Numbered from the stretch's first letter, positions 2,963-59,032 are shown. The stretch is 64,000 bases of DNA from Candidatus Moraniibacteriota bacterium (GCA_016699425.1 CP064975.1:1149369-1213368), one strand, 5' to 3'. Program-made: numbers and translations. Notes: generated by a model from the letters alone, not told the origin.

Positions 2963-3793
2963 ATGATATTCTCTCATACTCAAACCGTTTTCTATCCTTC
3001 CTCTGAGAGTGTGCGCGCAGCGACTGGCGATATACGAACCGGTATGATTGGCCGTGAGTCGGAATTTCCATTGGCCGATGATGGACTGCGTGGCGCGCTC
3101 CGGGCAGCGAGCAGCGAGTATACTTCGCCAGCCCGGTTCATCGTACCCGAAGAATACCTGTATCTGACCCAGGTAGAAGTTCCTGCTACCGAAGCGAGCC
3201 GCTCCCAGCTCGTGAAGTTGGTCGATACCGTTTTCCCCGAGACACTCTCTGAGCTCGCCTGGGATTTCGAAGTGATTGCAGAAGCGGATGGGCGTGCGAC
3301 GATTGATGTTTCGGGCGTTACGAAGGATTTCGGCGGCCTGCTCAAGGAGGCACTCGCTAGCTCCCGGGTTCGTTTGGAAGCGGTGATCCCAGAGTCGTAT
3401 GCTCTCGCCCGGGCATTACCCACCGATGATGCCGTACTCTTTGTCCATGAGCGCCGCGGCCTGACGATCGTCTCTATCGCCCGGATGCGGCGTGTCGTTT
3501 CAGCTATCGTCCTGGATCACCGTCCGAGTGAGGCGGAGCTGAGGGACTTCATCGAATTTGGGAAAACACACAAGCAGTGCACGCCGGAAAAACTTATTCT
3601 TTCAGGGATCGAAATCCGTCCAGAAGAATTTTCCTCACTTGGGCTCGACGCTCTCCCACTCGCTCTTCCACTCGATCCGGTCCATGGTGCGCTGCTCCTC
3701 GATCTCTCCTCACGTCGTGATGCTGACCGTCTCGATCTGCCGCTACGCGGATACCGGGAGCCTTGGTATCGGCGACTGTTTCATTTTTTCTAA
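2963..3793 (+). CDS. PilM-like pilus assembly protein (truncated relative to canonical PilM)
   Basis: Segments DFEVI..., EAVIPESYALARAL and AVLFVHERRGLTIVSIARMRRVVSAIVLD resemble the PilM middle and C-terminal regions. The N-terminal actin-like ATPase subdomain is not apparent. Confidence 0.4.
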   Translation: MIFSHTQTVFYPSSESVRAATGDIRTGMIGRESEFPLADDGLRGALRAASSEYTSPARFIVPEEYLYLTQVEVPATEASRSQLVKLVDTVFPETLSELAWDFEVIAEADGRATIDVSGVTKDFGGLLKEALASSRVRLEAVIPESYALARALPTDDAVLFVHERRGLTIVSIARMRRVVSAIVLDHRPSEAELRDFIEFGKTHKQCTPEKLILSGIEIRPEEFSSLGLDALPLALPLDPVHGALLLDLSSRRDADRLDLPLRGYREPWYRRLFHFF

Positions 3794-7233: not shown

Positions 7234-7262
7234 TTGACAGGCCACTTTTTTTCGTGTATACT
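7234..7262 (+). promoter_or_regulatory. Sigma70-type promoter TTGACA-17-TATACT
   Basis: TTGACA at 7234-7239, a 17-nt spacer, then TATACT at 7257-7262. Confidence 0.6.
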
Positions 7263-7277
7263 GGGTACATGAATGAG

Positions 7278-7313
7278 AAACGGGTGGCCATCATGGTATC
7301 CGTTTTCTTTTTT
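7278..7313 (+). terminator. Intrinsic-terminator-like hairpin plus U-tract in the leader of gene 7340 (alternatively the terminator of gene 6079..7164)
   Basis: Stem AAACGG / CCGTTT with a structured loop, followed by TCTTTTTT. Confidence 0.5.
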
Positions 7314-7339: not shown

Positions 7340-8401
7340 ATGGTCCGTTTCTCTGCAGTCCAAAAAACATCAATCCTTGAGATTTTCTCGCTGCTTTTGG
7401 TTGTCGTACTTCCATTGTTCCTTCCGACGCACTCGGCACAAGCAGCGGGTTTTCTTCAAACATGGGTGCGGCTTGATCGAATGAAAGCCTCGACCTTTAC
7501 GAGTGGCTTAGTGTGTGCTCAGACTCCGGCAACTGATACGGGCACCGAAGTCGATGTCCAAGTTGTCTTTCCGAGTGACTTTGTTGTTGGTACCACGCTC
7601 ACTGATTGGGCTGTGGCCACAACGGATCTTCCCTCGGGTGCTACGATATGGCCAGGCATTGGTCAAGCAACAGCGGCTAATAACACTACGAAAACAGTCA
7701 CTTTTCCATCAACCGCACTTACCACGAGCACGCTCTATTGCTTCCGGTGGACCAACAGTACAGCGGCCCTGCAAACTGGTTCAAGCGGAGCCAATAAGAC
7801 GGGTACCGTGACGACGCGGGCTACCGGACCGACAGATCTTGATTCCTCGGCATATTCGACGGCCATCGTTTCTGACGATCAGGTTGTCATTACAGCAACT
7901 GTTCCCGCCACGTTTAGTTTCAGTCTTCCCACTAACTCGATTGCGTTTCTATCCAATCTTACGACAACACCCGTTCTAACCAGTACCTCAGTAGCTACTA
8001 TCTCAACCAATGCAGCTTCGGGCTGGGTAGCCTGGGTGAAGAGTGCTAACGCTGCCCTCAGCTCGGTTTCGACTGGGGCATCGATACCAACTGCCGGATC
8101 GATTGATAATGCGGTGACAGATGTTGCTTCGACCAACGGATATTTCCTTGATGTTGCTTTCACAGATAGTGGCACTGGCACCGGGACTGTTACTCAAGCA
8201 GCTAATTATGGTCAGGAATACAATGGTGATGCTACGCATGGTGGGACACTTTCAACCACATTTCAACCAGTGGCTGCGAGTAGCGGTACTACTGACGGAG
8301 ATACGCTAACCTTTACGGCACTTGCAAGAATCTCGGCTATTCAGGCAGCAGCGACGGACTATACTGATACATTGACTATCGTGGCCGCGGGCCGGTTCTA
8401 A
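7340..8401 (+). CDS. Secreted Thr/Ala-rich surface protein (paralog B) with a conserved C-terminal motif
   Basis: Signal peptide ending SAQAAG. C-terminus ...AATDYTDTLTIVAAGRF parallels paralog A (DYT[ED]TLT[VI]xA..F). Confidence 0.5.
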   Translation: MVRFSAVQKTSILEIFSLLLVVVLPLFLPTHSAQAAGFLQTWVRLDRMKASTFTSGLVCAQTPATDTGTEVDVQVVFPSDFVVGTTLTDWAVATTDLPSGATIWPGIGQATAANNTTKTVTFPSTALTTSTLYCFRWTNSTAALQTGSSGANKTGTVTTRATGPTDLDSSAYSTAIVSDDQVVITATVPATFSFSLPTNSIAFLSNLTTTPVLTSTSVATISTNAASGWVAWVKSANAALSSVSTGASIPTAGSIDNAVTDVASTNGYFLDVAFTDSGTGTGTVTQAANYGQEYNGDATHGGTLSTTFQPVAASSGTTDGDTLTFTALARISAIQAAATDYTDTLTIVAAGRF

Positions 8402-8563: not shown

Positions 8564-9599
8564 TTGGGTTTTTCCTCCCCCCCACCCTCGCCTTCCGCCC
8601 AGGACGGATCCCTGCCTGACCGGCAGGCAGGCCTTCGCATCGTCACTTCCCCCCTCCCGATCTCACTCGTCGCCGAACCAGGGACGACCATCACGACCGA
8701 ACTGAAGGTGAAGAACGGCGGCACCGAACCTGAGACCCTGAAGATTGATATCCTGAAGTTCAACGCCTATGAAGACACGGGGAAGCCCGCCCTCCACGAC
8801 CTTGAACCGACGGATGAGTTCGCGAAATGGGTGACCTTCTCCGAACCGACCTTTACCGTGTTGCCCGAGGAGTGGAAGACGGTCACGGCCACGTTCACCG
8901 TCCCGGAGGAAGCCTCGTTCGGTTACTACTACGCCTTCGTTTTCTCTCGGGCCGAGGATCAGGAAGCCAAGCCTGGAGAGACGGCGGTCGTCGGCGGCAC
9001 GGCGACCCTCGTCCTCCTCGAAGCACGGGTACCAAATGCCTTGCGTGAGATCACCGTCACCGAGTTCTCGACGGACAAGACGGTCTATGAGTTCCTCCCG
9101 GTCAACTTCACCGTTTCTCTCAAGAATTCGGGCAATGTCCATGTCGCCCCGCGGGGCAATATCTTCCTCTCTCGGGGCAGTAACAAAGACATCGCCCTCC
9201 TCGAACTCAATTCCGGCAAGGGGAGCATCCTCCCGGATTCAACGCGTATCTTTGAGACGGGATGGAAGGATGGCTTCCCAGTTTACGAGGAAACGATCGA
9301 AAATGGCCAAGTCGTGCTCGATGAACTCGGTCATCAGACCTATCACCTGACCTGGGACTTCAAGAACGCTTCCCACCTCCCGTTTCGGCAAGTATACTGC
9401 CAAGATGCTCCTCGTTTACGATGATGGGACGCGGGACATCCCGATCGAGGGAGTGGTATCGTTTTGGGTGATGCCGTGGCGGTTGATTGCGGGGGCGGTG
9501 TTCAATTTCGCACTCATTATCGGACTCGGCTGGTATGTCATCCGCCTGCGCCGACGTTTGAAGCGGCTTCAATCAAATGATCAGTCACTCGTGAAATAG
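8564..9599 (+). pseudogene. Cell-surface beta-sandwich protein with a C-terminal TM anchor (duplicated family, copy 1); frameshifted
   Basis: Body ORF 8564..9424 continues as ORF 9405..9599 (TM tail WVMPWRLIAGAVF...) after a +1 C in a C-run near 9392. The signal-peptide region carries a further +C shift. Confidence 0.5.
8592..9530 (+). repeat. Tandem gene duplication, copy 1 (~940 bp, period ~1063 bp)
   Basis: Identical to 9655..10567 except for three short homopolymer indels. The shared antisense ORF N-termini (MNFRISIFRVSGSVPP...) confirm the repeat. Confidence 0.85.
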
Positions 9600-9602
9600 A
9601 GT

Positions 9603-10654
9603 ATGAAGTATTTCTTCCTCATCCTGACCATCGCTTTCCTCACCCCCTCCCTCGCTTCCGCCCAGGACGGATCCCTGCCTGACCGGCAGGCAGGCCTTCG
9701 CATCGTCACTTCCCCCCTCCCGATCTCACTCGTCGCCGAACCAGGGACGACCATCACGACCGAACTGAAGGTGAAGAACGGCGGCACCGAACCTGAGACC
9801 CTGAAGATTGATATCCTGAAGTTCAACGCCTATGAAGACACGGGGAAGCCCGCCCTCCACGACCTTGAACCGACGGATGAGTTCGCGAAATGGGTGACCT
9901 TCTCCGAACCGACCTTTACCGTGTTGCCCGAGGAGTGGAAGACGGTCACGGCCACGTTCACCGTCCCGGGAGGAAGCCTCGTTCGGTTACTACTACGCCT
10001 TCGTTTTCTCTCGGGCCGAGGATCAGGAAGCCAAGCCTGGAGAGACGGCGGTCGTCGGCGGCACGGCGACCCTCGTCCTCCTCGAAGCACGGGTACCAAA
10101 TGCCTTGCGTGAGATCACCGTCACCGAGTTCTCGACGGACAAGACGGTCTATGAGTTCCTCCCGGTCAACTTCACCGTTTCTCTCAAGAATTCGGGCAAT
10201 GTCCATGTCGCCCCGCGGCAATATCTTCCTCTCTCGGGGCAGTAACAAAGACATCGCCCTCCTCGAACTCAATTCCGGCAAGGGGAGCATCCTCCCGGAT
10301 TCAACGCGTATCTTTGAGACGGGATGGAAGGATGGCTTCCCAGTTTACGAGGAAACGATCGAAAATGGCCAAGTCGTGCTCGATGAACTCGGTCATCAGA
10401 CCTATCACCTGACCTGGGACTTCAAGAACGCTTCCCACCTCCGTTTCGGCAAGTATACTGCCAAGATGCTCCTCGTTTACGATGATGGGACGCGGGACAT
10501 CCCGATCGAGGGAGTGGTATCGTTTTGGGTGATGCCGTGGCGGTTGATTGCGGGGGCGGTGTTCATCGGCATCTTCTTCCTCATCGGTATGAAGTCAACT
10601 CTCTCAAAAATATGGAAACGTCTCTTCTCGCGTTCATCCGAAACTTCTGTCTGA
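9603..10654 (+). pseudogene. Cell-surface beta-sandwich protein with a C-terminal TM anchor (duplicated family, copy 2); two frameshifts
   Basis: Good signal peptide MKYFFLILTIAFLTPSLASA. A +G at about 9967 and a -GG at about 10212, relative to copy 1, split the reading frame across ORFs 9603.. and 9890..10654. Confidence 0.5.
9655..10567 (+). repeat. Tandem gene duplication, copy 2
   Basis: See copy 1. The flanking signal-peptide and C-terminal tail regions differ between the two copies. Confidence 0.85.
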
Positions 10655-12241: not shown

Positions 12242-12279
12242 CACTGACGGGCATATTCCTTTTACTGGAGCCATTCTTT

Positions 12280-12288
12280 TGCTATACT
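12280..12288 (+). promoter_or_regulatory. Extended -10 element TGcTATACT upstream of the giant gene
   Basis: TG at 12280-81 and TATACT at 12283-88. A weak -35 TTTACT sits 16 nt upstream. Confidence 0.45.
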
Positions 12289-12305
12289 GTCAGCGTGTAA
12301 AGATT

Positions 12306-12339
12306 CTTGCTCCGACGGGTGAACGGAGCAAGGGTTTTT
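12306..12339 (+). terminator. Perfect 9-bp-stem hairpin plus U-tract between the promoter and the giant-gene start (terminator/attenuator-like)
   Basis: CTTGCTCCG-ACGGGTGAA-CGGAGCAAG followed by GGTTTTTC. Confidence 0.55.
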
Positions 12340-12373
12340 CATTATTCCGATAGAAAAATCGGAGCGTGCGTGT

Positions 12374-15300
12374 ATGTTGTCACCCAAAAAACACAAGCTC
12401 AAATCAAAAAATATTCAGCGCTCATTCCGCCGGTACTTCCCCGGTGTGGTTGGATTTTTTCTGCTCACGCTTGCATCGTTTCTCATCGCGACGGACATCG
12501 ATGCGGCGACGGGTATCAACAAGCAAATCAGTTTTCAGGGCAAGGTCGTGAATACGAACGGGACGAATGTCTCGAACGGGAGCTACAACTTCCTGTTCTG
12601 TCTCTACACGACTGCGAGTCCAGCGACGCCGTGTACGGCTGGATCAAACAATGATGCGGTCTGGCGTGAATCAAAAAGTCTCACGGTCACGGACGGCATC
12701 TTCCAATCAAATCTCGGCGATACTACAGCGCTCCCGGGTTCGGTGGATTTCAATACAGACAATATTTATCTCGGCATAAATTTCAATAGCGACGGGCAGA
12801 TGTCACCGCTTGTCCGATTCACGGCTGCGCCGTACGCGATGAACGCAGCGAAGGTCGGCGGGCTGACGGTGACGGACACGACCGGCACGCTCACGATCCC
12901 AAACGCCAAGACCGTTCAATTTGCGGATGCGTTTACGACGACGGGTGCATTTCCGTTGACACTGACGTCGACGGCCAGTACGACGGCGACACTGCCTTCG
13001 GGAACGATCACTCTGGTCGACCTGGCAACATCACAGTCGCTTACCAACAAAACAATCGGTTCGACAGGACTGACATTTTCCGGTGCGTCGACGGATATCA
13101 CGACGGCCACGGGCGAGGACCTGACAGTGGTGGCCAATGGGGCCGGGATAATCAATCTCAATGATTCGGTCACGACCGGTGCGCTCACCATTTCTGGTGC
13201 GACCACGGACATCACCACCGCATCGGGCGAGTCACTCGTCATCGTCGCCAACGGAGCGGGGGTCGTCGATATCCAGGATGCGACGACGGTGGATTCGCTC
13301 ACCGCAGACACCGGCGGCGTCTCGATCGCTAGTGGACAGAGCTATACCGGTGCCGGCGCGGTCACGCTTTCATCGGCTGCGACGACCGCCCTCACCGTCG
13401 ATTCGGGGACGACCGGTGCACTCAATCTCGGGACCAGCAACAATGCGAAGACCATCTCACTTGGTACCGGTACCGCCGGCAACACGATCAATGTCGGGAC
13501 AGACAACACGACCAAGGACACGATCAATATCGGCTCGGCGCTCGATGATGTCGCTATCACTGGCGACCAATGGAGTATCACGAATGCGGGAGTCTTGACC
13601 GTGGTGTCGTGTAGTGGGTGCGGGGGAGGCGGAGGGACACTCGATAGCGCGTACACGGCTGGCAATACGATTACAACGGACAGTGGGAACAATGTCATCA
13701 TCACGCTTCAAGAGGTGGCGACCCCGACATCGTTCGTCGTCGAGAATCAGGATACGGCGGGCGTCTCGGCGGAGCGGGTCTTCAACTCGATCGCCTCTGG
13801 CACGCTCACCAATGGACTGCTCATCGAACAGGCCGGTGCAGGTACGATGACCAATGCCATCCAGATTGCCGAGACCGCCGGGACCATCACTGATGGCATC
13901 CTCATCACTGGCACACTGGGCAATATCTTGAACTCCCCCTCGCTCGATATCACGGGTGCAGGGGCCATCACTGGTGCGACCGGGATTACCTCGGCGACGG
14001 GGGATATCACCGCTACGGCAGGGAACATCGTCTTGAATAGCACAACGCGGATCTCAAATGCTGGTGTCGGTACATTCATCACAGGCACAGTGATCGGTTC
14101 GCAGACCTTTACGACCAACAATATCGCTGACTCAGGCGCACTCACGATTGCTTCTGCTGCCGCATCGGCCCTGACCCTGAACTCGGGCACGACTGGGACG
14201 ATCGATATCGGGACAGATGCCAGCGCTGAGACGATCAATATCGGCAATACCGGTGCGGCCGTGAAGACGATCGCGATCGGCAACAACTCACAGGCCAACA
14301 CCATCACCATTGGTGATGCGTCGGCGACGAGCGTCTCCATCACGGACAATAACTGGTCGATTTCAACAGCGGGTGCTGGGGCATTTACTTCACTCTCATC
14401 CACGGGTGCCATCGCTGCCAACGGTGGCATCACCTTCGACAACACCTCCGACACCGTTGGTTCCTTCACCTCATCCGGCACCATCCTGATGAACTCGAAC
14501 ATCCTCCAAGATATCGGCAACACCGGTACCGACTTCATCGCCAGTACCGGAGCCCTCACCCTCGCCGGCGTGCTGACAGCCAATGGCGGCATCACCTTAG
14601 CGGGGAGCCAGTCCTTCGCGGCTTCCGCCCTCTCCTATATGGACCTCGGTCTCATCACGCACAGTACGACTGCCAATCAAGGCCTCCGTCTCCCCAATGC
14701 GGCGAGTGCTACCCCGTCCAACCCAACCTCAGGGGAAGGCTATCTCGCGTGGGATGCCGCGGGGAATCAGCTCATTACGTACAATGGGAGCGCGTGGACG
14801 ACTTTGACCGGCAGTGCTTCAGATCTCCAAACTGCCTATAATACCGACGCTGACGGATCGAACGCGACCATCTCCCTCACTGCCGCTGATGACGGCCTCA
14901 TCATCACCAACCCTACCTCAGCCGGTAACAACCTCTCCGCCTTCACCCTCCAAGTCTCCCAGCTCAATACGACCGCGGCGATCACGGCTATTGATATCAT
15001 CCAAGCGAGCAATGCGGCGAACGGGGTTGACATCACCGCCAACGCCATTGATACGGAAACAGCGCTCGCCGTGACGGCCAATGTTCTGACTTCCGGCAGA
15101 GCCCTCACCCTCGCCTCCTCCTCCGTCGCCTTCACCGGTGCCCTCGAATCCATCACCCTCTCTGGCTCCAATGCCGCCAATACCGGCAATCTCCTCCTCA
15201 TCGCTGACACCGGTGCTCTCAATACCACCACCTCCTTCAAAGTCACCGCCAATGGGGCGGCTACTCAGGTTGCTGCCTTGATCGAAAACACCGGCTCCGG

Positions 15301-18300
15301 TACGAGCTTCCGTGTCAACGATGTCGCCAGTGACACCGACCCCTTCCTCATCGACGCGACTGGCAATGTCGGTATCGGCGACGCTACCCCGAACACGATT
15401 CTGGACGTTCTCTCCTCGGGTGCCGCGGACACGGTCTTCACCCTGGCCAATACCAATGCTGGTGACTTTGATCCGATCGTGAAGTTTGAACTCACCGAAG
15501 GCACCCCCCTCTTCACCCTCGGCATCGATGACTCAGACTCCGACAAGTTCAAGATCTACTCTGGGGATGGTCTCGCCAGTGGGGATGAGTTTGTCATTGA
15601 CGCGAGCGGTACCACCACCATCGCTAACCTCAACCTGGGCGCTACCTCCTTTGATACCGATGCTGGGGCCGTGACCTGGATCGATATGCCGGTGACGAGC
15701 GGGGCGGCGGACAATACGGTGGAATCGTACACGTCGCAGCTCGATGGCCAGAGTATGCTCACGGTGTACGCCCTCTCCGATGGGGCGGGGAGCATCGATA
15801 CTCGGCGTGTCCAGCTCGGGGACGGCGGGGCAGGTGTGGCTCAGCCGGTTCTGCTTGGATTGGATGTCCGGACAGGCACGGGGGATCCGACGGATGGTTT
15901 CGAAGGGGCCATGTACTACAACACGACGGACAATGTCTTCCGCTGTTACCAAAACACCGGCTGGACGAACTGCATCGGTTCGGGTGGTTCCACCGACCTC
16001 CAGACCGCCTACAACACGGACGCTGACGGTACCAACGCGACTATCTCCCTCACCGCCGCTGACGATGGCCTCATCATCACCAACCCGACCTCGGCCGGCA
16101 ACAACCTCTCCGCCTTCACCCTCCAAGTCTCTCAGCTCAACACGACTGCTGCGATCACGGCCATCGATATCATCCAGGCATCCAATGCGGCGAACGGCGT
16201 CGACATTACCGCCAACGCGATCGATACCGAGACGGCCCTGACGGTCACTGCCAATGCGCTGACGACGGGCCGGGGCCTCTCGATCGATGCGGGCAATACG
16301 ATGACGACGGGCGGCGCGCTCAGTATCAGCGGTACGACCTATGTTCATGGCGCGGAGACGGGGAGCCTTGTGAGCTTGGCCGTTACCGACGCGACGACGG
16401 CGGCAGTAACCAGTACGACCAACACCCTTCTCGTATCGCCCACGATCAATGCTCCCTCGGGTGCCGCAACGAGAACTATAAGCGGTGTTTCTGTCACTCC
16501 GACAACGACGGCCTGTGCCGCCGGTACCTGTGCCGTGAACGGTTTCAATGTGGGCGCTATCACCGAAGGTGCTGACGCAGCGAGATTCGCGAGTACAGCA
16601 CTCAATATCGGCACGGGTTGGGACACCTTCCTCGACACGGCTTCCCTTGATATCACCGGCGCGGGGGCCATCACCGGCGCGACGGGTGTTTCGACTACGA
16701 CGGTGACGGCCTCATCCACCATCGCGGCCAATGGTGGCATCACCTTCGACAACAACACCGACACCGTCGGCTCGTTCACCTCATCCGGCACCATCCTGAT
16801 GAACTCGAACATCCTGCAGGATATCGGCAATACCGGCACTGACTTCATCGCCAGTACCGGGGCCCTCACCCTCGCCGGCGTCCTCACAGCGAACGGCGGC
16901 ATCACCCTCGCGGCGAGCCAGACCTTCACGGGTTCGTCGCTCTCGTACATGGACCTGGGTGCCATCACGCACGGGACGACGGCAGTGCAGGGACTCCGAT
17001 TGCCGCAGGCGGCGAGCGCCAGCCCGTCGAGTCCGAGCTCGGGCGAGGGTTACCTGGCCTGGGACGCGGGCGGCAACCAGGTCATCTATTACAACGGCGC
17101 GGCCTGGGCGACATTTGGTGCGGGCGGCGGTTATAATTTGATCAAAGATGAAGCCTCAAGCCTTACGGCCCGGACCACGCTCGCCTTCCTCGGTGCGGGC
17201 GTATCGTGTGCGGACAATGCGTCGCAGACCGAGTGTACGATTTCAGGCGGCGCGGGCTCGGATCTGCAGGGGACCTATGGCGCTGATGCCGATGGTTCGA
17301 ATGCGACCATCTCGCTCACCAGCGCGGATGACTCGCTCGTCATCCGTAACCCGTCCTCGGCGGGCACCGACTCGGCCTTTACCTTCAAGGTGGAACAGCT
17401 CAATACCGGGATCGACAATGACGTCATCTATGCCGACAACCGCGGCACGGGCGACGGTCTCCGTATCGATGACACGTCTGGTGATACGACACCGTTTATC
17501 GTTGACCAGCATGGTCGGGTAGGCATCGGGACAGCGTCTATAAGTGGAAATGCTTCCACAGAGCGTCTGTTACAGGTTGGTTCCGAGACTACGCGCGGAA
17601 ATTCGGCGACCTATGGGGAAATAATCAGTAAGGGGCTGAATAGGCATACAGCTCTCACCAACATTCAAGACATCTTTGTCTATGATACGACAGGGGATAG
17701 TGATGGCGGACGTTGGATCGATTGGGCGACCACGGACAACCTGTCTTGGTACTCTGAAACACTTGATGATGGACCAAATGATCCGTGTAATATTGCCAGC
17801 GATGACCGTTGCTATAATAGCTCTTTTCCCCGGAAAGCCATCCTGGTCGTAACGACCGATGCTCTCTATATCTTCGACGCAGCGACGAACGACATGTGGA
17901 TGAAGTTTAGTCAGAATGCTTCGGGATATGCTCTCGGGGTAGATACCAACAATGATCCCTCGAGTGTTCATGCGCTGAATGGTGTCGTCTATGTTGGTGC
18001 CAACGGTACATCAGCTGGTGGTTTGTACGCCATCGACTTCGTGAATGATCGCATGTGGAACTACGGTGGCACCAATCGTTCTGCGGCGGATACTGGTATC
18101 AGCGGACGCAATGCTGCGGTGACATACAATGTCGACAGCAATGCCAAGCTTGAAATCTCACCCGTTGGGACACAGGCAGAATGGGAGCGAGTGAACGATG
18201 TCCATGCAGTGGTGATGTCGCGCACCCAATCAGCGGTAACGGCTCTCGGTAGTGCAACCAATACGAACCCTGGCTATGGTAAAGTCTTTATTGGACTTGC

Positions 18301-21300
18301 GACCGACTCTGGGGTAACGATAATCAACCCATCGGGCCAAGTCTTGAACCAGTATTCGGATGTCACCGCCGATGATTACACAGCGGTCGCACTCTCAAGC
18401 AGAGGGTTTATGTATGCGCTCAATACCACGCAGGACCAACTCGAGCGCTGGGATACGATTGACACTGATAAGGCGAGTGAGGTGAATGGTACGTTTAGTC
18501 GTAAATGGGATGAGACGATTGGGACTGGCCCAGCCCTCGCTTCGGCGACCTTCAATATTGTGGCTGGGATGCCAGATAACCTGGAGATTGCCGAACGCGC
18601 CTCGAATAATTTGAACACGGAAGACGTTATTTATGTTGGCCATAGTCTTGGCATGGCGGAACTGCATGAACATACGACGCAGGCCTTTGGCTGGGTCAAG
18701 CATTACAATGCAACCCGTCAAACGCCGATGATGATGCTCGCTGGTATAAATGATATGGTGCTTCCCATGGACGATACCTCTGGAACCCAGGCGCAGGACC
18801 TCGCTATCGCCAATACGGACATGGCCATCAAAGGAACACCAACGCTCGGGGTGAACGGTGTGCAGGGCAAGGCAATAAACTTCGATAATACCGACGATTA
18901 TCTGTGTTCTGATAATGATCAGAACAATACCTGCGATGTCGATACCGCTTTTAATATGTCGACGGTCGGTTGGACGCTCAGTCTGTGGTTTCGGCATTCG
19001 ACCACAGCACCGGCCTCGGGTGTCGATATGCTTTTTGAAAAATGCGTGACGGCGACACCGGGCCAGGCGATAGGCTGCGTAGCCGCCTACATGACTACTA
19101 CCGGTGTAGTAGTAGTTGCCAATGATGATGATGCGACTTGGACCCAAGGGTCGTCGTATGATATTACCGCTACCTCGACCTATGCTTACAATGACAACCA
19201 GTGGCACAACCTGATTATCACAAGAACCAACGCCAACGACGTGGATTCCTGGATCGATGGGCAGGGCATGAACCTTTCCACGGCTACCGGTCTGACAGCT
19301 ACGTTTGACGGTTCGCAGATCGTCAGTATTGGTGCTTCCTGTGTGACGACAGTGACCGCCAACTGTGGTGCAGCCACAAATTTCTGGGATGGCCAAATTG
19401 ACGATGTGCAATACATTGTCGGGACAACGACACAAGCGACCATGACTCAGCTCTATGTTCGCCGGTATTTCAATGTGGAACGACCCCGGGCGAGCAAGAA
19501 AACGGTATCTGTGACCAACGCTACCTCAGCTTCCTCGACTTCTTTGACCGATACGGGGGAGGCTTGGTATGTAAACGAATTTGCCGGACAGATTGTCGAG
19601 ATTACGGGGAGTGACGATGCGGATTGTATCGGCATCACACGACGTATCTCCTCCAACACGGCCACAGCACTCACTTTTACCCCGGCCGTACCGGGAGCGT
19701 GTACCATGGATACTTCGGCTGACTTTCGGATTGATCCAGAGAAGCTCTATGGTGCATCGAGTAGTATTGCCGGCATCGGCATTACGGCAGAAACGCCGCT
19801 TGGTGAAGCCCGTCAACTGTGTGTGGGAACCAATAGTGGCACCGATACGGGTGGTGTGACTTGTTATAACCATCAAGACGGCCCGAGTATCGTGGCTGAC
19901 GTCTATCATAGCCAAGCGAGCAAAACAGATGATAGCGGCACGGACTGGACAGGAACGGATTATGACGACATACGGGCAGTCGATCTTTCTTCTCGAACGC
20001 TCATCATAGCTTCCGAAGGACACTTTACCAGCAGAACGGAAGACGTGCGTCTGGGGCAAGGTCTGGAATATATCAGTAACCAACTCTATGCCATTCGTCA
20101 GGAAATCGTTCTCGACGGTATCACAGCGGTCGGGAGTACGGGTTCAGAAATCGGTTTCACTGGTGGGGCGGACTTGGCGGAGCGGTACTATTCGAATGAG
20201 GCGCTCGTAGCGGGCGAGGTGGTCGCGATTGATTCGTCTCTGGAGGCGGGCGTGAAGAAAACTGTCGGGGCGTATCAGCGTGATGTGCTCGGTATAGTGG
20301 CGACGACTCCTGGCATCGTCCTCGGCGCCGAGGCGGAAAACGGGTATCCGATCGCGCTCGTCGGCCGTGTCCCGGTGAAGGTGACGAATGAAAATGGCCA
20401 GATCTATGCGGGTGACCGGGTGACCGCCGCGAGCCGGCCGGGTCATGCCATGCTCGCGACTCAGGCCGGCCGCGTCATCGGCCAGGCGCTGGGCGATGCG
20501 GTCGACTGGACGGTCTGTGAAGGGGAGGACCCGTTGAATCACGATGCCGTACTCTGCACGACGGTCATGGTCTTCGTCAATCTGTCGGACTACTACGGCC
20601 AGCCAGTCGAGCTCGCCATGGCGGCCCGTGATGCGGCGGATGCAGCTCTGGCTCCGGAGGTCGGGGACGAGGAGCTGGGACTGTCCGGTGCGGGTACTAC
20701 GGTCCGGCTCGTGACGGCCGCTCCGACACGGGAGGAGAAAATCATGGCGTTTCTGAAGGAAATCCGTGACGAGCGGGCGCAGTCAAACGCTGCTCCGTCC
20801 GAAGTCTTCACCGATCGGGTGGCTGCCAGTACCGAGATCATCACACCGAAATTGATCGTCGATGAGATATTTGCGAAGTCGATCAAGGCGGACAGTATCG
20901 AAGGGCTGTCTATCTGGACGGATCAGATTGCATCACTCCAGGAAAAGTATGCTGGGCTCGAGGCGGCTCCTCTGACGGATACGACTGGTACCTCGGCTGT
21001 GCCTCCATCCCTCGCGGTCGCGATGAAACAGCTCGCCACGGATTCGATCACGGTGCAGCTCGATGGTTCTATCCTCGGCAAACTCTCGGTCGAGGGGGCA
21101 CTCCGGATTGGCGGGGATGCACAGTTCGATGGCAACACGGTCTTTGCCAGGCTCGCCTCCTTCCTCGGCGATACGTTGTTCCAGGGCAAGGTGTTCTTTG
21201 AGCAAGCACCGACCTTTGGTTCAAATACGGCGGGCTTCGCCCTCATCGAACAGGGAGCGAAACACGTGCGGGTGAGTTTCGATGAGTCGTATGAGGAGCA

Positions 21301-21769
21301 ACCGATCGTGACCATCACCCTCGCCCGCGACACCTCACTCCTCCTCGATGAAGCAGCCAGTGCTGAGCTGAAGGCCGATGTTGCCGCAGTGGACCAGGAC
21401 TTCGCCGAGACGGTCTTCGAGAGTGATGTCCGGTATATCATCACTGAGAAAGACCAGACGGGCTTCACCATCCTGCTCTCGGAGGCGGCGCCGGTCGATC
21501 TCCAGTTCAGCTGGGTCGCGCTCGCCGTGAAAGGCGCGAAGCCTTTTGTCTCGGACAAGCGTGAAACGTCAAACCAGGGAGAGAGTGAGACAGTAATACC
21601 GGTACCGGAACCCGCGACCCCTCCATCTCAAGTAGGGGTGGAACCAGAACCGGCACCGACGCCACTCCCCGAGACCCTGCCCGCGGATACCTCATCTGAC
21701 GAAGCGTCTCCTCCAGACACGGATCCACCGGTGGCCTCCTCGGACATCCCGCCCTCGGGCACCATCTAA
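12374..21769 (+). CDS. Giant (3131 aa) cell-surface fibre/adhesin-like protein
   Basis: Uninterrupted ATG ORF. N-terminal signal-anchor. Long Thr/Gly/Ala-rich beta-strand repeats (ITGAGAITGATGIT...). A large internal repeat pair. A LamG/concanavalin-like segment at about 18.8-19.5 kb. A Pro-rich C-terminal tail. Confidence 0.85.
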   Translation: MLSPKKHKLKSKNIQRSFRRYFPGVVGFFLLTLASFLIATDIDAATGINKQISFQGKVVNTNGTNVSNGSYNFLFCLYTTASPATPCTAGSNNDAVWRESKSLTVTDGIFQSNLGDTTALPGSVDFNTDNIYLGINFNSDGQMSPLVRFTAAPYAMNAAKVGGLTVTDTTGTLTIPNAKTVQFADAFTTTGAFPLTLTSTASTTATLPSGTITLVDLATSQSLTNKTIGSTGLTFSGASTDITTATGEDLTVVANGAGIINLNDSVTTGALTISGATTDITTASGESLVIVANGAGVVDIQDATTVDSLTADTGGVSIASGQSYTGAGAVTLSSAATTALTVDSGTTGALNLGTSNNAKTISLGTGTAGNTINVGTDNTTKDTINIGSALDDVAITGDQWSITNAGVLTVVSCSGCGGGGGTLDSAYTAGNTITTDSGNNVIITLQEVATPTSFVVENQDTAGVSAERVFNSIASGTLTNGLLIEQAGAGTMTNAIQIAETAGTITDGILITGTLGNILNSPSLDITGAGAITGATGITSATGDITATAGNIVLNSTTRISNAGVGTFITGTVIGSQTFTTNNIADSGALTIASAAASALTLNSGTTGTIDIGTDASAETINIGNTGAAVKTIAIGNNSQANTITIGDASATSVSITDNNWSISTAGAGAFTSLSSTGAIAANGGITFDNTSDTVGSFTSSGTILMNSNILQDIGNTGTDFIASTGALTLAGVLTANGGITLAGSQSFAASALSYMDLGLITHSTTANQGLRLPNAASATPSNPTSGEGYLAWDAAGNQLITYNGSAWTTLTGSASDLQTAYNTDADGSNATISLTAADDGLIITNPTSAGNNLSAFTLQVSQLNTTAAITAIDIIQASNAANGVDITANAIDTETALAVTANVLTSGRALTLASSSVAFTGALESITLSGSNAANTGNLLLIADTGALNTTTSFKVTANGAATQVAALIENTGSGTSFRVNDVASDTDPFLIDATGNVGIGDATPNTILDVLSSGAADTVFTLANTNAGDFDPIVKFELTEGTPLFTLGIDDSDSDKFKIYSGDGLASGDEFVIDASGTTTIANLNLGATSFDTDAGAVTWIDMPVTSGAADNTVESYTSQLDGQSMLTVYALSDGAGSIDTRRVQLGDGGAGVAQPVLLGLDVRTGTGDPTDGFEGAMYYNTTDNVFRCYQNTGWTNCIGSGGSTDLQTAYNTDADGTNATISLTAADDGLIITNPTSAGNNLSAFTLQVSQLNTTAAITAIDIIQASNAANGVDITANAIDTETALTVTANALTTGRGLSIDAGNTMTTGGALSISGTTYVHGAETGSLVSLAVTDATTAAVTSTTNTLLVSPTINAPSGAATRTISGVSVTPTTTACAAGTCAVNGFNVGAITEGADAARFASTALNIGTGWDTFLDTASLDITGAGAITGATGVSTTTVTASSTIAANGGITFDNNTDTVGSFTSSGTILMNSNILQDIGNTGTDFIASTGALTLAGVLTANGGITLAASQTFTGSSLSYMDLGAITHGTTAVQGLRLPQAASASPSSPSSGEGYLAWDAGGNQVIYYNGAAWATFGAGGGYNLIKDEASSLTARTTLAFLGAGVSCADNASQTECTISGGAGSDLQGTYGADADGSNATISLTSADDSLVIRNPSSAGTDSAFTFKVEQLNTGIDNDVIYADNRGTGDGLRIDDTSGDTTPFIVDQHGRVGIGTASISGNASTERLLQVGSETTRGNSATYGEIISKGLNRHTALTNIQDIFVYDTTGDSDGGRWIDWATTDNLSWYSETLDDGPNDPCNIASDDRCYNSSFPRKAILVVTTDALYIFDAATNDMWMKFSQNASGYALGVDTNNDPSSVHALNGVVYVGANGTSAGGLYAIDFVNDRMWNYGGTNRSAADTGISGRNAAVTYNVDSNAKLEISPVGTQAEWERVNDVHAVVMSRTQSAVTALGSATNTNPGYGKVFIGLATDSGVTIINPSGQVLNQYSDVTADDYTAVALSSRGFMYALNTTQDQLERWDTIDTDKASEVNGTFSRKWDETIGTGPALASATFNIVAGMPDNLEIAERASNNLNTEDVIYVGHSLGMAELHEHTTQAFGWVKHYNATRQTPMMMLAGINDMVLPMDDTSGTQAQDLAIANTDMAIKGTPTLGVNGVQGKAINFDNTDDYLCSDNDQNNTCDVDTAFNMSTVGWTLSLWFRHSTTAPASGVDMLFEKCVTATPGQAIGCVAAYMTTTGVVVVANDDDATWTQGSSYDITATSTYAYNDNQWHNLIITRTNANDVDSWIDGQGMNLSTATGLTATFDGSQIVSIGASCVTTVTANCGAATNFWDGQIDDVQYIVGTTTQATMTQLYVRRYFNVERPRASKKTVSVTNATSASSTSLTDTGEAWYVNEFAGQIVEITGSDDADCIGITRRISSNTATALTFTPAVPGACTMDTSADFRIDPEKLYGASSSIAGIGITAETPLGEARQLCVGTNSGTDTGGVTCYNHQDGPSIVADVYHSQASKTDDSGTDWTGTDYDDIRAVDLSSRTLIIASEGHFTSRTEDVRLGQGLEYISNQLYAIRQEIVLDGITAVGSTGSEIGFTGGADLAERYYSNEALVAGEVVAIDSSLEAGVKKTVGAYQRDVLGIVATTPGIVLGAEAENGYPIALVGRVPVKVTNENGQIYAGDRVTAASRPGHAMLATQAGRVIGQALGDAVDWTVCEGEDPLNHDAVLCTTVMVFVNLSDYYGQPVELAMAARDAADAALAPEVGDEELGLSGAGTTVRLVTAAPTREEKIMAFLKEIRDERAQSNAAPSEVFTDRVAASTEIITPKLIVDEIFAKSIKADSIEGLSIWTDQIASLQEKYAGLEAAPLTDTTGTSAVPPSLAVAMKQLATDSITVQLDGSILGKLSVEGALRIGGDAQFDGNTVFARLASFLGDTLFQGKVFFEQAPTFGSNTAGFALIEQGAKHVRVSFDESYEEQPIVTITLARDTSLLLDEAASAELKADVAAVDQDFAETVFESDVRYIITEKDQTGFTILLSEAAPVDLQFSWVALAVKGAKPFVSDKRETSNQGESETVIPVPEPATPPSQVGVEPEPAPTPLPETLPADTSSDEASPPDTDPPVASSDIPPSGTI
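14822..15075 (+). repeat. Intragenic repeat unit B, copy 1 (DLQTAYNTDADG...IDTETAL module)
   Basis: Roughly 90% nucleotide and near-identical amino-acid match to 15995..16250. A second module (ANGGITFDN...YNGSAWTT) also recurs, at about 14397-14810 and 16720-17110. Confidence 0.8.
15995..16250 (+). repeat. Intragenic repeat unit B, copy 2
   Basis: See copy 1. Synonymous-site divergence suggests an old duplication maintained at the protein level. Confidence 0.8.
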
Positions 21770-23492: not shown

Positions 23493-23512
23493 GTGTGATG
23501 GTATACTAGAAG
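23493..23512 (+). promoter_or_regulatory. Extended -10 promoter motif GTGTGATGGTATACT, 9 nt upstream of the ATG (likely leaderless mRNA)
   Basis: Shares a 14-mer with 5323..5341. TATACT at 23503-08. Confidence 0.5.
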
Positions 23513-23516
23513 AGCT

Positions 23517-24257
23517 ATGGAAAGAAACCTGAAACCACGCATGGACCCGCTCTCGGGACAGGAATCTCGCTCGCGGCGTTCATCGAGCCGATTTTCCCCG
23601 GCTGTTCTCATCCTGACCGCGGCGCTGCTCGCGGCGCTCGGTGTGGCCGGCTACTTCTACTATCAGTATCGCCAGTCACCCAAAGTCCAAAGTGTCGGAG
23701 AGGTGAAGGACCTGAAAGAGGAGATCGGTGCCGTGTTCGAGCTCCCTACAGATGAGGAACCGACGCTCGCCACCGTGACCGACCGCGACAAGCTCGCTGA
23801 GCAGCCCTTCTTTCAAAAGGCTGAAAATGGCGACAAAGTGCTCATCTATTCGGCTTCCGGCCGAGCGATCCTGTATCGTCCGAGTACGAAGAAAATTGTC
23901 GATGTGACTTCGGTGAACGTCAATCAGCCGGCTGTTCCGGCACCCGCGGCTCCGGTGGCTGAGGCAGTGCCCGTGATCGTCCGCGTCGCCATCCTGAACG
24001 GTTCGACGGTGGCTGGAGCGACCGCTGCCGCTGAGGCGAAGCTGAAGGCGGCCCTTTCCAATGTCGCGGTCACGACCAAAGCGAATGCTGCGAAGCGTAC
24101 CTATACCGAGACGATAATCGTCGACGTAGCCGGCCAGCATGCCACGGCTGCCGCCGACATCGCGGCCGCCCTCGGCGGATCAGTCGCCGGGTTGCCAGCG
24201 GGGGAGACAGCTCCCTCAGACGCCGATGTTCTCGTCATCGTGACGAGTGGAGAGTAG
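23517..24257 (+). CDS. Membrane-anchored LytR_C domain protein (second paralog)
   Basis: TM helix AVLILTAALLAALGVAGYFYY. C-terminal VRVAILNGSTVAGATAAAEAKLKAA...KRTYTETIIVD. Confidence 0.6.
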   Translation: MERNLKPRMDPLSGQESRSRRSSSRFSPAVLILTAALLAALGVAGYFYYQYRQSPKVQSVGEVKDLKEEIGAVFELPTDEEPTLATVTDRDKLAEQPFFQKAENGDKVLIYSASGRAILYRPSTKKIVDVTSVNVNQPAVPAPAAPVAEAVPVIVRVAILNGSTVAGATAAAEAKLKAALSNVAVTTKANAAKRTYTETIIVDVAGQHATAAADIAAALGGSVAGLPAGETAPSDADVLVIVTSGE

Positions 24258-24390
24258 CTGCTAGATACTGTGCTTGGGCTGCCTGGGATATGCATCAGGG
24301 CAGCTTTTTGTTTTAGACCCCTCCCCCCGTATAATAGAGGGAGTCATTGCTCGCCGGTGGCTTTCAGAGTAGGATATCCAGACTATATAT

Positions 24391-28750: not shown

Positions 28751-28906
28751 TTGGACGGATCGATTCGAGCTCCTGAGCTTTCCTTGAAGGGTAGCCGCCG
28801 CGACGGTTGCCTTTTTTCTTTTCTTCCCTATAATGAGAACGTTGCCTACGAGGCAGCTTAACAATCGAATATTCCGGCGTAGCTCAGTGGTAGAGCAGGT
28901 GACTGT

Positions 28907-29480
28907 GGACATATGGATGGTATACCGATGAATGGATGCCAGACACAAGAACCTATGCTGATCGTCGAGAGTACTTGAAACGGGCGGTTGCCAAACGGCG
29001 CAAGGCCGTGCGGAGGCGCGCGATCGAGTACAAAGGCGGAAAGTGTTCCCGTTGCGGTTATAAACGGTGTCAAGACGCGCTCGAATTCCATCATGCCCAT
29101 GGCGGCAAGGATTTCGGGATTCCTCAGGATGGACTCACTCGAAGTTGGGACAGAGTCCGAGAGGAAATAGACAAGTGCATCTTGGTATGCGCCAATTGCC
29201 ATAGGGAGGAACACGCAGAATTACGCAGCCTTTCGGAGAAATCCGAGAGTGATAAATGAGGTGAATTGCTGGAAGCCTACGGTCGATCAGCTCGGCTATG
29301 GTAATCAGCAGCCAAGCCCCAGTTTGTATTGGGGAAGGTTCAGAGACTATCTCGCAAGAGAGTACTTCGATATCATACGATATCGCGGGAAGCGCCTCAC
29401 TCCTAAGTCCGCTCTGTGAAGACAGATGACGGAGACGGAGATGATATAGTCCATTCTTTTCGGAAACGAAGAGGGAAATG
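28907..29480 (+). mobile_element. Group I self-splicing intron carrying an HNH endonuclease ORF
   Basis: Conserved core elements are readable: P AATTGCTGGAAG (29265-76), Q AATCAGCAGCC (29303-13), R GTTCAGAGACTA (29338-49), S ATGATATAGTCC (29441-52). U precedes the 5' splice site and G ends the intron. Confidence 0.75.
28936..29259 (+). CDS. HNH homing-type endonuclease encoded within the group I intron
   Basis: CSRCGY...LEFHHAHGGKDF...CILVCANCHREEH is an HNH / zinc-finger motif. Lies in a peripheral loop 5' of the P3-P9 core. Confidence 0.8.
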   Translation: MPDTRTYADRREYLKRAVAKRRKAVRRRAIEYKGGKCSRCGYKRCQDALEFHHAHGGKDFGIPQDGLTRSWDRVREEIDKCILVCANCHREEHAELRSLSEKSESDK

Positions 29481-29514
29481 TAATCACTTGGTCGTAGGTT
29501 CGAACCCTACCGCC

Positions 29515-29600
29515 GGAGCAGTTAAATTCAAGGCTTACTCAAGCCTTGTTTTTTGTTACCCTTCATGAAGGTTAGAACCTGGTATAATCAGGGTATGAAT
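29515..29600 (+). repeat. Intergenic cassette A: tRNA 3' end + terminator + GTTACCCT + extended -10 (TGgTATAAT at 29580-88)
   Basis: Homologous to cassettes at 30262..30345 and 34012..34090. The -10 lies 6 nt before the ATG at 29595. Confidence 0.6.
29530..29554 (+). terminator. Rho-independent terminator after the tRNA (part of repeated cassette A)
   Basis: AAGGCTT-ACTC-AAGCCTT followed by GTTTTTT. Confidence 0.65.
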
Positions 29601-29825: not shown

Positions 29826-29828
29826 CGT

Positions 29829-30211: not shown

Positions 30212-30261
30212 ATATTCTCGTACTGGCGTAAAATTACGGTTCTAACACCATTCACGATGCG

Positions 30262-55674: not shown

Positions 55675-55705
55675 AATAAAAAAATCAATCCGCCAACTGG
55701 CGGAT
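55675..55705. terminator. Bidirectional Rho-independent terminator
   Basis: ATCAATCCGCC-AACT-GGCGGATTGAT with A-run and T-run flanks. Confidence 0.7.
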
Positions 55706-55733
55706 TGATTTTTTAGTGAGGTGGGGGACTCTC

Positions 55734-55913
55734 TTACAAGAGTCCGACCTGGCCGAAGAAAGTGAGCGTGAGGACCGGTACGAGAGCGAGGAGGAACGCC
55801 ATCGACGTTTCCTGACTTTGCGCTTGTTCCTGTGCGACTTTGGCACAGTTCTCACACGCGGGTCCGCTGCACGGAGCCTCCATCAGGGGCTCATTGCCTT
55901 TCATCTCCATAGG
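55734..55913 (-). CDS. Possible 59-aa Cys-rich small membrane protein
   Basis: MEMKGNEPLMEAPCSGPACENCAKVAQ... plus a C-terminal TM. Below the ORF-track length cutoff. Confidence 0.25.
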   Translation of the reverse strand, partial: PMEMKGNEPLMEAPCSGPACENCAKVAQEQAQSQETSMAFLLALVPVLTLTFFGQVGLL

Positions 55914-56206
55914 AGTGTTTGTTTTTATTAATTATTTAAACGACCTGTTGAAAAGAAAAAACGGGGGACCTGGGTCACCCGTTTCGCTCACTTCAACATA
56001 TTTAGTATACTCCCGTTTTTGACAAAAGTCAACCCCTACCACCAAAGCTTTTCAAGGATTGGCGATTCTGATATTGACCGGAAGCAAGGGCTTCCAAAGA
56101 CTCGGCGGATATGAGCTGGCGGCGCTGTCTGTCTGCTGCCTGGATGCTGCCCGAACTGGAGAGTGGATAAAAAATAGTGTACACTAGAATACACTAAAGG
56201 AGACAC

Positions 56207-57085: not shown

Positions 57086-57114
57086 TTGACCGAGGCCCCT
57101 TTTCGGGCTATACT
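57086..57114 (+). promoter_or_regulatory. Sigma70-type promoter TTGACC-17-TATACT
   Basis: Exact spacing of 17 nt. Confidence 0.55.
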
Positions 57115-57128: not shown

Positions 57129-57150
57129 AAAAGGCGGAAACGCCTTTTTT
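57129..57150 (+). terminator. Terminator-like hairpin plus U-tract about 8 nt downstream of the predicted TSS
   Basis: AAAAGGCG-GAAA-CGCCTTTTTT. Confidence 0.6.
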
Positions 57151-57178: not shown

Positions 57179-58968
57179 ATGGAGACACGCAACGTCGCAA
57201 TTATCGCGCACGTCGACCACGGCAAGACAACTCTGACTGACGCTCTCATGCGCCAGACGGGAGTCGCGATGGCCGTCGGTGCCTCGATGGATTCGAATGC
57301 GCTCGAACAGGAACGCGGCATCACTATCTACGCCAAGAACTGTTCATTGTTCTATAAGAACACCAAGATCAATATCGTCGATACGCCTGGTCACGCGGAT
57401 TTCGGTTCGGAAGTAGAGCGCGTGCTTCGCTCCATCGATGATGTCATCCTCGTCGTCGATGCTCAGGAGGGTCCGATGCCGCAGACCCGCTTTGTCTTGA
57501 AGAAATCACTCGAGCTGGGTCTCCGACCGATCGTCGTCATCAACAAGATCGATAAACCAGCCGCTCGTCCAGACGAGGTGAAGGAGATGGTCTATGAACT
57601 CTTCCTCGACCTCGGAGCGGACGATCATCAGCTTGATTTCCCGGTGGTCTATGCCATCGCCCGCGAAGCGGTGCTATGAAGGAGCTGGCTGATCCGCGCA
57701 CCGATCTCTCGCCGCTCCTCGATACCATCCTCGAGCGTGTTCTTCCTGCTAGCCACGATGTCGATAAGCCGCTCCGTGCTCAGCCGTTCAATCTCGGCTA
57801 TGACAATTTCGTCGGTCGCCTGGCCATCGCTCGCGTCTATGATGGTCGTCTCGCAGTGAACGATTCGGTCATGCTCCGGAACGTCAATGGCAAACAGTCG
57901 TCCGGTCGCATTGTGAAACTCTTCACTTTTCGTGGAATGGAGCGCGTCGAGAGTCAGTCTGTCGAAGCGGGGGACATCGTCATGATTGCCGGATTGCCGG
58001 ATGTCGAGATCGGGGACACGATCACGACCTATGCGAACGCCGAGCTTCTTCCAGCCATCGCGATCGATGAGCCAACCATTTCGCTTGACTTCATGGTAAA
58101 TGACTCTCCTTTTGCTGGCCGCGAAGGAAAATTTGTTACGAATAAGCAGATTCGCGAACGTCTCGAAAAAGAGCTCGAGATCAATGTCGGTCTCCGGATC
58201 GAATTCGCTGATGACCACTACAAAGTCTACGGTCGCGGTGAGCTCCACATCTCTATTTTGCTCGAAAACATGCGCCGTGAGGGCTACGAAGTCCAGGTGT
58301 CACAGCCACAGGTCATCATCAAGGATGTCGACGGCGTGAAGTCAGAACCGTTTGAGGAAGTGACCGTCGAGTGCCCGATGGAAGTGACTGGCCCTGTCAT
58401 TGAAAAGATGGGCAAGCGCAAGGGTATCATGATGGATATGCGTGAAGGCTCGGGTGGGTACCAGCGACTGCTCTTCGAAATCCCAACGCGTGGCCTCCTC
58501 GGCTATCGTGGTGAGTTCATGGTGGATACACGCGGTGAGGGGACACTGTATACTCGTGTTCTCGGCTTTCGGCAGTACGCGGGCACGATTGATCACCGCG
58601 ATGTCGGCGCCAGGATTTCGATGGAGACGGGCAAGGCAGCTGCGTTCTCGCTCGACAATCTCCAGACGCGTGGTACGCTCTATATCGGCCATGCGGCTGA
58701 AGTATACGAGGGGATGGTCATCGGCAACGCCACCAAGGGCGAAGATATGTCGGTGAACCCGACCAAAGGTAAAGCGATGAGCAATATGCGCTCATCGGGG
58801 GCCGATGAAGCGATCAAGCTGACCCCGCCGTGGGAGCTGAATATCGAACGCGGCCTGGAAGTTATGAACGCGGACGAGTACCTTGAGATCACTCCGCTCT
58901 CGGTTCGGCTCCGCAAGCAATTTCTGAAAGAGACTGACAGAATACGGGCGACTCGAAGTAAAAAATAA
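57179..58968 (+). pseudogene. typA: Translational GTPase TypA/BipA, split into two ORFs (57179..57679 and 57676..58968) by a frameshift at an ATGA junction
   Basis: G domain ([18 protein letters not shown]) in ORF 1; domains II-V in ORF 2. The junction falls in the loop that is contiguous in BipA homologs. Confidence 0.7.
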
Positions 58969-59032
58969 GATAGGTGAAAGCCCCGAGAGCCGGGGCTTTT
59001 TTCTATGTATTGAATGGAAAGAGGATGAAGAT

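Follow-up and report, generated by a model that had tools for sequence, protein, structure and literature searches.

The locus raises the question of why a near-consensus promoter should be followed, within the 5′ leader it produces, by a hairpin that looks like an intrinsic terminator, ahead of the gene that it would have to serve. An earlier note on the window (the whole 64,000-nt stretch of DNA analyzed here) had described this promoter–hairpin–gene order at three sites, and all three were found where it had placed them, upstream of genes for a secreted/surface protein, a giant protein, and TypA (Table 1, sites 1–3). A fourth site, on the minus strand (56032..55951) and additional to those three, emerged when every TATACT in the window was listed. 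At all four sites a σ70-type promoter with a TATACT −10 hexamer is followed 13 to 20 nt later by a GC-cored hairpin with a T-tract, and the ATG lies 26 to 45 nt past the hairpin/T-tract without a Shine-Dalgarno motif. The anatomy of an intrinsic terminator, a GC-containing stem-loop and then a U-tract on the transcribed strand, is present at each. Short-leader folds of sites 1 to 4 gave z-scores of −2.0, −5.4, −3.6, and −2.8 against shuffled sequences. Transcription start sites are predicted throughout, ∼7 nt past TATACT.

Table 1. Coordinates of the predicted promoters, leader hairpins, and associated genes at the four sites.
Feature	Position	Strand	Remarks
Site 1 promoter: TTGACA, 17-nt spacer, TATACT	7234..7262	+	11/12 consensus
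Site 1 leader hairpin GAGAAACGGGTGGCC..TGGTATCCGTTTTCTT with T-tract	7275..7313	+	−13.3 to −14.7 kcal/mol
Gene for 353-aa secreted/surface protein, ATG 7340	7340..8401	+	N-terminal signal-like segment
Site 2 promoter: weak −35 TTTACT, 16-nt spacer, extended −10 TGcTATACT	12261..12288	+	
Site 2 leader hairpin, core CTTGCTCCG/CGGAGCAAG, with T5	12301..12339	+	−18.2 kcal/mol
Giant ORF, 3131 aa, ATG 12374	12374..21769	+	N-terminal hydrophobic segment
Site 3 (typA) promoter: TTGACC, 17-nt spacer, TATACT	57086..57114	+	−35 and −10 kept in typA loci of relatives
Site 3 leader hairpin AAAAGGCG-GAAA-CGCCTTTT with T6	57129..57150	+	−10.8 kcal/mol, z = −3.6
typA (bipA), ATG 57179	57179..58968	+	Two ORFs through a 1-nt deletion near 57647
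typA 3′ terminator	58977..59002	+	−14.9 kcal/mol, stronger than leader hairpin
Site 4 promoter: TTGACT, 17-nt spacer, TATACT	56004..56032	−	Divergent from cyclophilin gene 56207
Site 4 leader hairpin GAAACGGGTGACCCAGGTCCCCCGTTTT with T-tract	55951..55985	−	−17.4 kcal/mol, z = −2.8
58-aa ORF, ATG 55910	55734..55910	−	Hydrophobic C terminus

The window is assigned to a Moranbacteria-like Patescibacterium, and the top relatives of the C-terminal part of its TypA, at 73 to 87% identity, come from metagenome-assembled genomes of Moranbacteria-like Patescibacteria. A full-length RpoD with regions 1.1 to 4 is encoded in the window, in which TATACT is the recurrent intergenic −10 hexamer. A generic promoter scan of the window gave no excess over shuffles, so the promoter calls stand on their position and their conservation among orthologs. 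Of the eight best consensus promoter matches in the window, three (7234, 57086, and 56032) have a leader terminator, and no other top match stands just ahead of a protein-coding gene. Few genes have a Shine-Dalgarno motif (15 of 61 in the window and 76 of 624 in related loci); given this scarcity, the absence of one from the four leaders is unremarkable. Elsewhere on the plus strand, TATACT stands only 6 to 9 nt before an ATG at 2951–2963 and at 23502–23517, the genes behind being 2963–3793 and a LytR_C protein gene, 23517–24257 (real-looking); this spacing suggests that the mRNAs of both are leaderless or nearly so. The LytR_C paralogs 5389 and 23517 have the promoter context GTGATGGTATACT in common.

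Site 1 lies in the type IV pilus neighborhood that forms the first 12 kb of the window, and its promoter (TTGACA at 7234–7239, TATACT at 7257–7262) is the top promoter-like match in 1–20 kb. In the hairpin core, AAACGG (7278–7283) pairs with CCGTTT (7300–7305) within an extended stem (7275–7309), and the T-tract TTTTCTTTTTT occupies 7303–7313 (leader fold −14.7 kcal/mol); the previously described TTGACA-17-TATACT promoter with its AAACGG...CCGTTT hairpin and U-tract was thereby confirmed. The gene product had no Pfam hit, and a look-up of the exact protein returned no record. A metagenome scan yielded an ortholog (L082) with 64% protein identity, the same upstream paralog, and the same gene order, which retains the TTGAC of the −35, TTCGTGTATACT, the T-tract, and the stem (GAAACGGGTGGCC..TGGTATCCGTTT). 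Between the two, the stem is invariant and the loop and flanks differ; promoter and stem alike are conserved. In another homolog (L081), the terminator precedes the promoter in the ordinary way, and the leader has no hairpin. At 8592–10565 (plus strand) there is a tandem duplication of ∼1 kb, 99 to 100% identical, in which the start-to-start spacing drifts (1063, 1064, 1062, and 1061 nt), pointing to small indels that break Fn3-like ORFs; it represents either a recent duplication or an assembly artefact.

At site 2, the layout described for 12280–12339 was likewise confirmed. The extended −10 (TATACT at 12283–12288) and the hairpin (12301–12337, with T5 ending at 12339; leader fold −22.2 kcal/mol) are present, but the −35 is weak. 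A small hairpin at 12343–12363 (plus strand), TCCGAT-AGAAAAA-ATCGGA, lies between this terminator and the ATG of the giant gene and masks the sole GGAG of the leader.

At site 4 the hairpin arms GAAACGGGTG..CCCCGTTTT are part of an extended helix (∼55997..55947), and the 58-aa ORF is followed by its own strong terminator (55714..55679, minus strand). The sequences of sites 1 and 4 can be aligned from the −10 hexamer to the end of the stem, much of the similarity lying in the purine-rich 5′ strand, the pairing partner of the U/C-tract. Origin from a repeat or mobile element was considered and rejected, GAAACGGGTG being found exactly only at these two sites. Within the 5′ leader of the divergent cyclophilin gene, window positions 56175–56196 hold a 12-bp perfect palindrome, TAGTGTACACTA, with a TAGTGTA repeat nearby; the palindrome is operator-like, and its minus strand scores as a weak terminator.

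The promoter and hairpin reported ahead of typA at 57086–57150 were likewise recovered. The gene reads as two ORFs (57179–57679 and 57676–58968), and comparison with its closest relative (L001) places a deletion within 57640–57680 (GAA-GCGG vs GAAGGCG); the split is probably an assembly error, although it could mark a pseudogene. A perfect 15-bp inverted repeat, ACCCCGCACCATATT / AATATGGTGCGGGGT, with arms 81 nt apart (56976–57086, plus strand), spans from the cyclophilin stop codon to the typA −35 with no T-tract after it, and could be a 3′ UTR structure or the relic of a small mobile element.

The placement of promoters and terminators was analyzed by pooling the window with 80 typA loci (705 kb) and pairing strict terminators with promoters of at least 10/12 consensus. 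Same-strand distances included 26 pairs in which the terminator starts 0 to 40 nt after the −10 hexamer, as compared to 13 pairs in the canonical terminator-then-promoter peak at −80 to −60, over a background of ∼1 to 6 per 20-nt bin; the promoter-then-terminator peak is at least as high as the canonical one. Within the window, four modules run from promoter to terminator and about six from terminator to promoter. The claim that the layout recurs is borne out by this distance peak, which marks the recurrence as non-random, and by conservation at typA and at site 1. The sites are not copies of one element: the typA case is phylum-wide, and sites 1 and 4 have leader sequence in common.

Conservation is broadest at typA. 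Of 76 regions upstream of typA in Patescibacteria, 41 were scored by a relaxed detector as having a hairpin with T-tract, as compared to 5 of 228 segments (2%) in each of the two control sets, shuffled and intragenic; several further loci are near misses by eye, and ∼30 to 45% of typA loci have no detectable element. At 19 of the 41 loci the 75 nt preceding the hairpin contain a promoter of at least 10/12 consensus, a match seen in only 8 of 820 random segments. From −10 hexamer to stem the median distance is ∼12 to 15 nt, and the elements occupy leader positions: the stem follows the promoter by 5 to 45 nt, and the ATG follows the stem by 7 to 95 nt. At several loci the stem ends only 7 to 12 nt from the ATG, which leaves no room for a separate promoter, so that typA mRNA there must come from read-through. 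Stems vary by clade (GGCG/CGCC, CTGC/GCAG, GGCC/GGGC, CCGC/GCGG), typically with a 4- to 6-bp GC core and A-U pairs at the base, whereas the shape and the T-tract persist. When 29 typA leader hairpins were aligned with MAFFT and passed to RNAalifold, no consensus emerged, since they are not alignable by sequence; a covariation test on hairpins chosen by their fold would be circular, and enrichment over controls was used instead. The 372-nt region upstream of E. coli bipA contains no such hairpin, which rules out a universal feature of typA genes.

DEAD-box helicase and csp genes occur in the vicinity of typA in several loci, and the layout also stands upstream of NusA (L003) and of DEAD-box helicase genes (L039 and L043). 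A cold-shock regulon was considered and rejected, since only two to three of 11 helicase loci have the layout and nothing consistent emerged. Any tie of the layout to cold-shock or ribosome-biogenesis genes is weak. Other DEAD-box helicase leaders near typA (L044, L051, and L065) have a different conserved structured leader (..TGTGTTGTCGAC..GTCTGCATGACACGGTACGACAAACAATG), and two csp copies of one locus (L079; 2100–2263 and 8190–8350) have a conserved leader of ∼100 nt in common; both kinds may be separate cis-regulatory RNAs.

The earlier note had offered promoter-proximal attenuation or an antitermination/riboregulatory switch as explanations. The first fits the conserved, non-random layout, while the second is unsupported, since no antiterminator fold, conserved leader peptide, or Rfam family was found. 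The suggested search for alternative antiterminator pairings gave nothing competitive: RNA that would be available ahead of the 3′ arm reaches only −1.2 to −4.9 kcal/mol when folded, as compared to −10.8 to −24.5 kcal/mol for the terminator. At site 1 the 5′ arm can pair with CCGTTTCT, codons 3 to 5 of the gene, a pairing discarded as a candidate since it is lost in the ortholog L082. Scans against Rfam 15 covering the window, the sites at a permissive E ≤ 10, and 14 related loci returned no family at gathering threshold for the sites; with no Rfam match, and with the leader ORF unconserved, no sensor (aptamer, leader peptide, or protein- or tRNA-binding motif) was found. The leader sequence itself is unconserved across clades. 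In pyrG-type attenuation, transcription starts in a homopolymer run and the extension pairs with the pyrimidine-rich 5′ arm of the terminator. Such reiterative attenuation does not fit these leaders, whose 5′ arms are purine-rich (AAAAGGCG, GAGAAACGG) and which have no homopolymer at the predicted +1.

The Rfam scans matched only a group I intron and one tRNA. The intron, of ∼570 nt, interrupts the anticodon loop of a tRNA gene at 28807–29554 (plus strand). The gene's 5′ half starts at 28873 (TCCGGCGTAGCTCAGTGGTAGAGCAGGTGACTGTG), its 3′ half ends near 29517 (..GGTCGTAGGTTCGAACCCTACCGCCGGA), and the ribozyme core lies at 29171–29473. An intron ORF (28936–29259, 107 aa) with CxxC...HH...CxxCH motifs resembles an HNH endonuclease. 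ARAGORN recognized a tRNA here only after in silico splicing, one junction giving His(GUG). The gene has its own promoter (28807–28834), overlapping the upstream terminator, and its own terminator (29529–29548). Beside it begins a low-GC island (∼29500–34500; 0.40 vs ∼0.55 elsewhere) with DKNYY, Ham1, and ABC-transporter genes, which may have been acquired horizontally.

On balance we lean toward the view that the four sites are promoter-proximal intrinsic terminators in 5′ leaders that lack a sensor, i.e., transcription attenuators. A σ70-type promoter would start RNA ∼7 nt after TATACT, and the first 30 to 55 nt would fold, without a competitor, into a GC-cored hairpin with a purine- or A-rich strand on its 5′ side and a U-tract after it. 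Termination at the U-tracts is what the sequence leads us to expect: a fraction of polymerases would release a short RNA there, and mRNA would come only from those reading through, many typA loci having no room for a second promoter. Output would then equal promoter strength times read-through, the latter being set by hairpin strength. Modulation, if any, could come from general factors rather than from an RNA sensor, such as NusA/NusG loading on very early elongation complexes, U-binding cold-shock RNA chaperones, temperature, or NTP supply, although the identity of any modulating factor is speculative.

Premature intrinsic terminators in bacterial 5′ UTRs, or transcription attenuators, have been surveyed (PMC2965389). 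The sites resemble these in having a terminator hairpin and U-tract between promoter and start codon, with expression by read-through, and differ in lacking an aptamer, leader peptide, T-box, or antiterminator and in placing the hairpin almost at the 5′ end of the RNA. The link to typA (0 mentions in PMC2965389) and the setting in Patescibacteria both fall outside that survey. With respect to hairpin strength, a parallel is the group of suboptimal terminators in Bacillus subtilis that depend on NusA or NusG, which have short GC cores, A-U stem bases, an upstream A-tract, and TTNTTT-like U-tracts (PMC8060035). The typA leader hairpins are similarly weak with A-U base pairs, but the B. subtilis terminators lie mostly at gene ends and not 15 nt from a promoter. 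Are the typA leader hairpins, then, leaky by design? A candidate source of modulation is suggested by E. coli Csps, which have been described as antiterminators, and by CspB and CspD of B. subtilis, which change read-through (PMC8307031). A cold-shock protein binds T-rich single strands (PMC1636342), and BipA (TypA) is required for 50S maturation at low temperature (PMC8313970). Sequence-nonspecific tuning of a bare terminator, and the DEAD-box and csp genes near typA, are reminiscent of such a mechanism; it is a candidate only. Few helicase leaders (two to three of 11) have the layout, and the surface-protein sites have no cold-shock link.

The order of elements distinguishes the sites from promoter-coupled terminators, in which the RNA 3′ end precedes the start site by ∼10 bp and the promoter includes the stem and T-tract (Fletcher et al. 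2026, bioRxiv 10.64898/2026.08.19.745784). Both arrangements pack a promoter and an intrinsic terminator into one short intergenic segment. By definition, however, a promoter-coupled terminator has its 3′ end at most 35 bp upstream of the start, with the −10 just past the T-tract, and at the four sites this order is reversed, so that the promoter's own transcripts must cross the terminator. The promoter-coupled type does occur in the window, at 28787–28834 and 24277–24335 (plus strand), where the terminator stem/T-tract overlaps the −35 and spacer of the next promoter.

The main rival to read-through attenuation, which we nevertheless judge unlikely, is that the 5′-terminal stem-loop shields the mRNA from decay that depends on the 5′ end and the U-rich stretch serves as an S1-type ribosome landing site, with little or no termination. 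The stem begins only ∼2 to 13 nt from the predicted start site, this being the predicted single-stranded 5′ segment, so close that a main role as a 5′ stabilizer is possible. At sites 1 and 4 pairing between the U-tract and the purine-rich start of the RNA is possible and would make nearly the whole 5′ end helical, and both the rarity of Shine-Dalgarno motifs and the weakness of the typA leader hairpins would suit such a function. A stabilizer, however, needs no run of T5–8 right after a GC-cored stem, and it is this association that is strong: when the most stable of the hairpins in the 90 nt preceding the ATG was taken without requiring Ts, at least 5 T followed in the next 8 nt at 43 of 66 typA loci, as compared to ∼10% estimated from composition. 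Stabilizing stem-loops of the E. coli ompA-leader type are stable hairpins within a few nt of the mRNA 5′ end and do not need a U-tract. In the leaders described here, by contrast, the U-tract is the most conserved feature. The shape also matches the 3′ terminators of the same genome, down to the pairing of A-tract with U-tract, and a polymerase would encounter a terminator signal regardless of what the element is for. This alternative is weakened by how tightly stem and U-tract are coupled.

We regard it as improbable that the hairpin serves chiefly to terminate or insulate a preceding gene in the same direction, with the next promoter squeezed upstream of it and polymerases that start so close possibly escaping termination, e.g., before Nus factors replace sigma. 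This was the fallback of the earlier note. Sites 1, 2, and 3 do follow same-direction genes that have no other terminator, so that a dual role is possible there, and the gene order is the same in the ortholog of site 1. Independence from the upstream gene is nevertheless observed at site 4, which is divergent, and at 15 of 23 typA loci whose upstream gene is divergent, where no same-direction gene precedes the element; it was present at only 8 of 129 other gene sides in the divergent setting, an enrichment of ∼tenfold for typA, with genes for these direction classes called heuristically as longest ORFs. Moreover, leader hairpins are weaker than gene-end terminators. Those of typA are also shorter, and their median stability was −7.5 kcal/mol, as compared to −14.5 kcal/mol for the 3′ terminators of the same loci; in 18 of 20 pairs it was the leader hairpin that was less stable (Wilcoxon p = 3e-4; Mann-Whitney p = 3e-8). 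Termination of the preceding gene is largely refuted as a general explanation.

Slightly less probable again is that each module is an independent small-RNA gene of 30 to 55 nt, with the downstream gene driven by read-through. A strong promoter and a terminator with no other promoter before the gene is the layout of cyanobacterial actuatons, in which a gene without its own start site depends for expression on polymerases that pass the terminator of a short transcript (PMC6596454), and the leader sequence common to sites 1 and 4 could be taken in the same sense. Actuaton small RNAs, however, are discrete, functional molecules of 65 to 130 nt, whereas the short RNA here would be little beyond the hairpin, with no conserved single-stranded seed, and the typA hairpins are kept in shape but not in sequence, which argues against base-pairing in trans.

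Control of hairpin formation by a ribosome on a leaderless mini-ORF is very improbable: the ATG 6 nt after the −10 hexamer of site 1 does open an 18-codon ORF across the hairpin, at the same spacing as the candidate leaderless gene 2963, but it reads ATT in the ortholog L082, where the inner ATG is also gone, and the typA and site 2 leaders have no comparable ORF. Equally improbable is that the inverted repeat acts as DNA, as the operator of a dimeric repressor immediately past the promoter. The palindromes do lie at ∼+5 to +40, and a terminator palindrome may also serve as a site for a transcription factor (bioRxiv 10.64898/2026.08.19.745784), but half-sites and spacing vary among clades, and even within the Moranbacteria group (loops of 4 to 9 nt), and the T-tract is conserved on the sense side only.

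Taken together, read-through attenuation is the likely function, an RNA switch is unsupported, and the preceding-gene explanation is largely refuted. Bacteria of the candidate phyla radiation are mostly uncultured and encode few regulators, and to our knowledge almost nothing is known of their gene regulation. The recurrence of the typA layout across the phylum makes it probable that this arrangement throttles transcription in bacteria with few classical regulators. For genome annotation, predicted terminators in compact genomes are not safely read as gene ends, given that four of about ten pairings in the window run promoter, terminator, gene, an order that affects the prediction of operons and transcription units in metagenome-assembled genomes. 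The typA leader terminator, found phylum-wide despite sequence drift, offers a testable handle on control at the level of elongation. A wider possibility, which we put forward as doubtful, is that a set of Patescibacteria genes, with typA as its phylum-wide core, is controlled at elongation by bare promoter-proximal terminators whose read-through is set globally, for instance by the kinetics with which NusA or NusG load early elongation complexes, by cold-shock RNA chaperones, by temperature, or by NTP supply. If true, this would be a regulon defined by architecture and not by a sequence motif.
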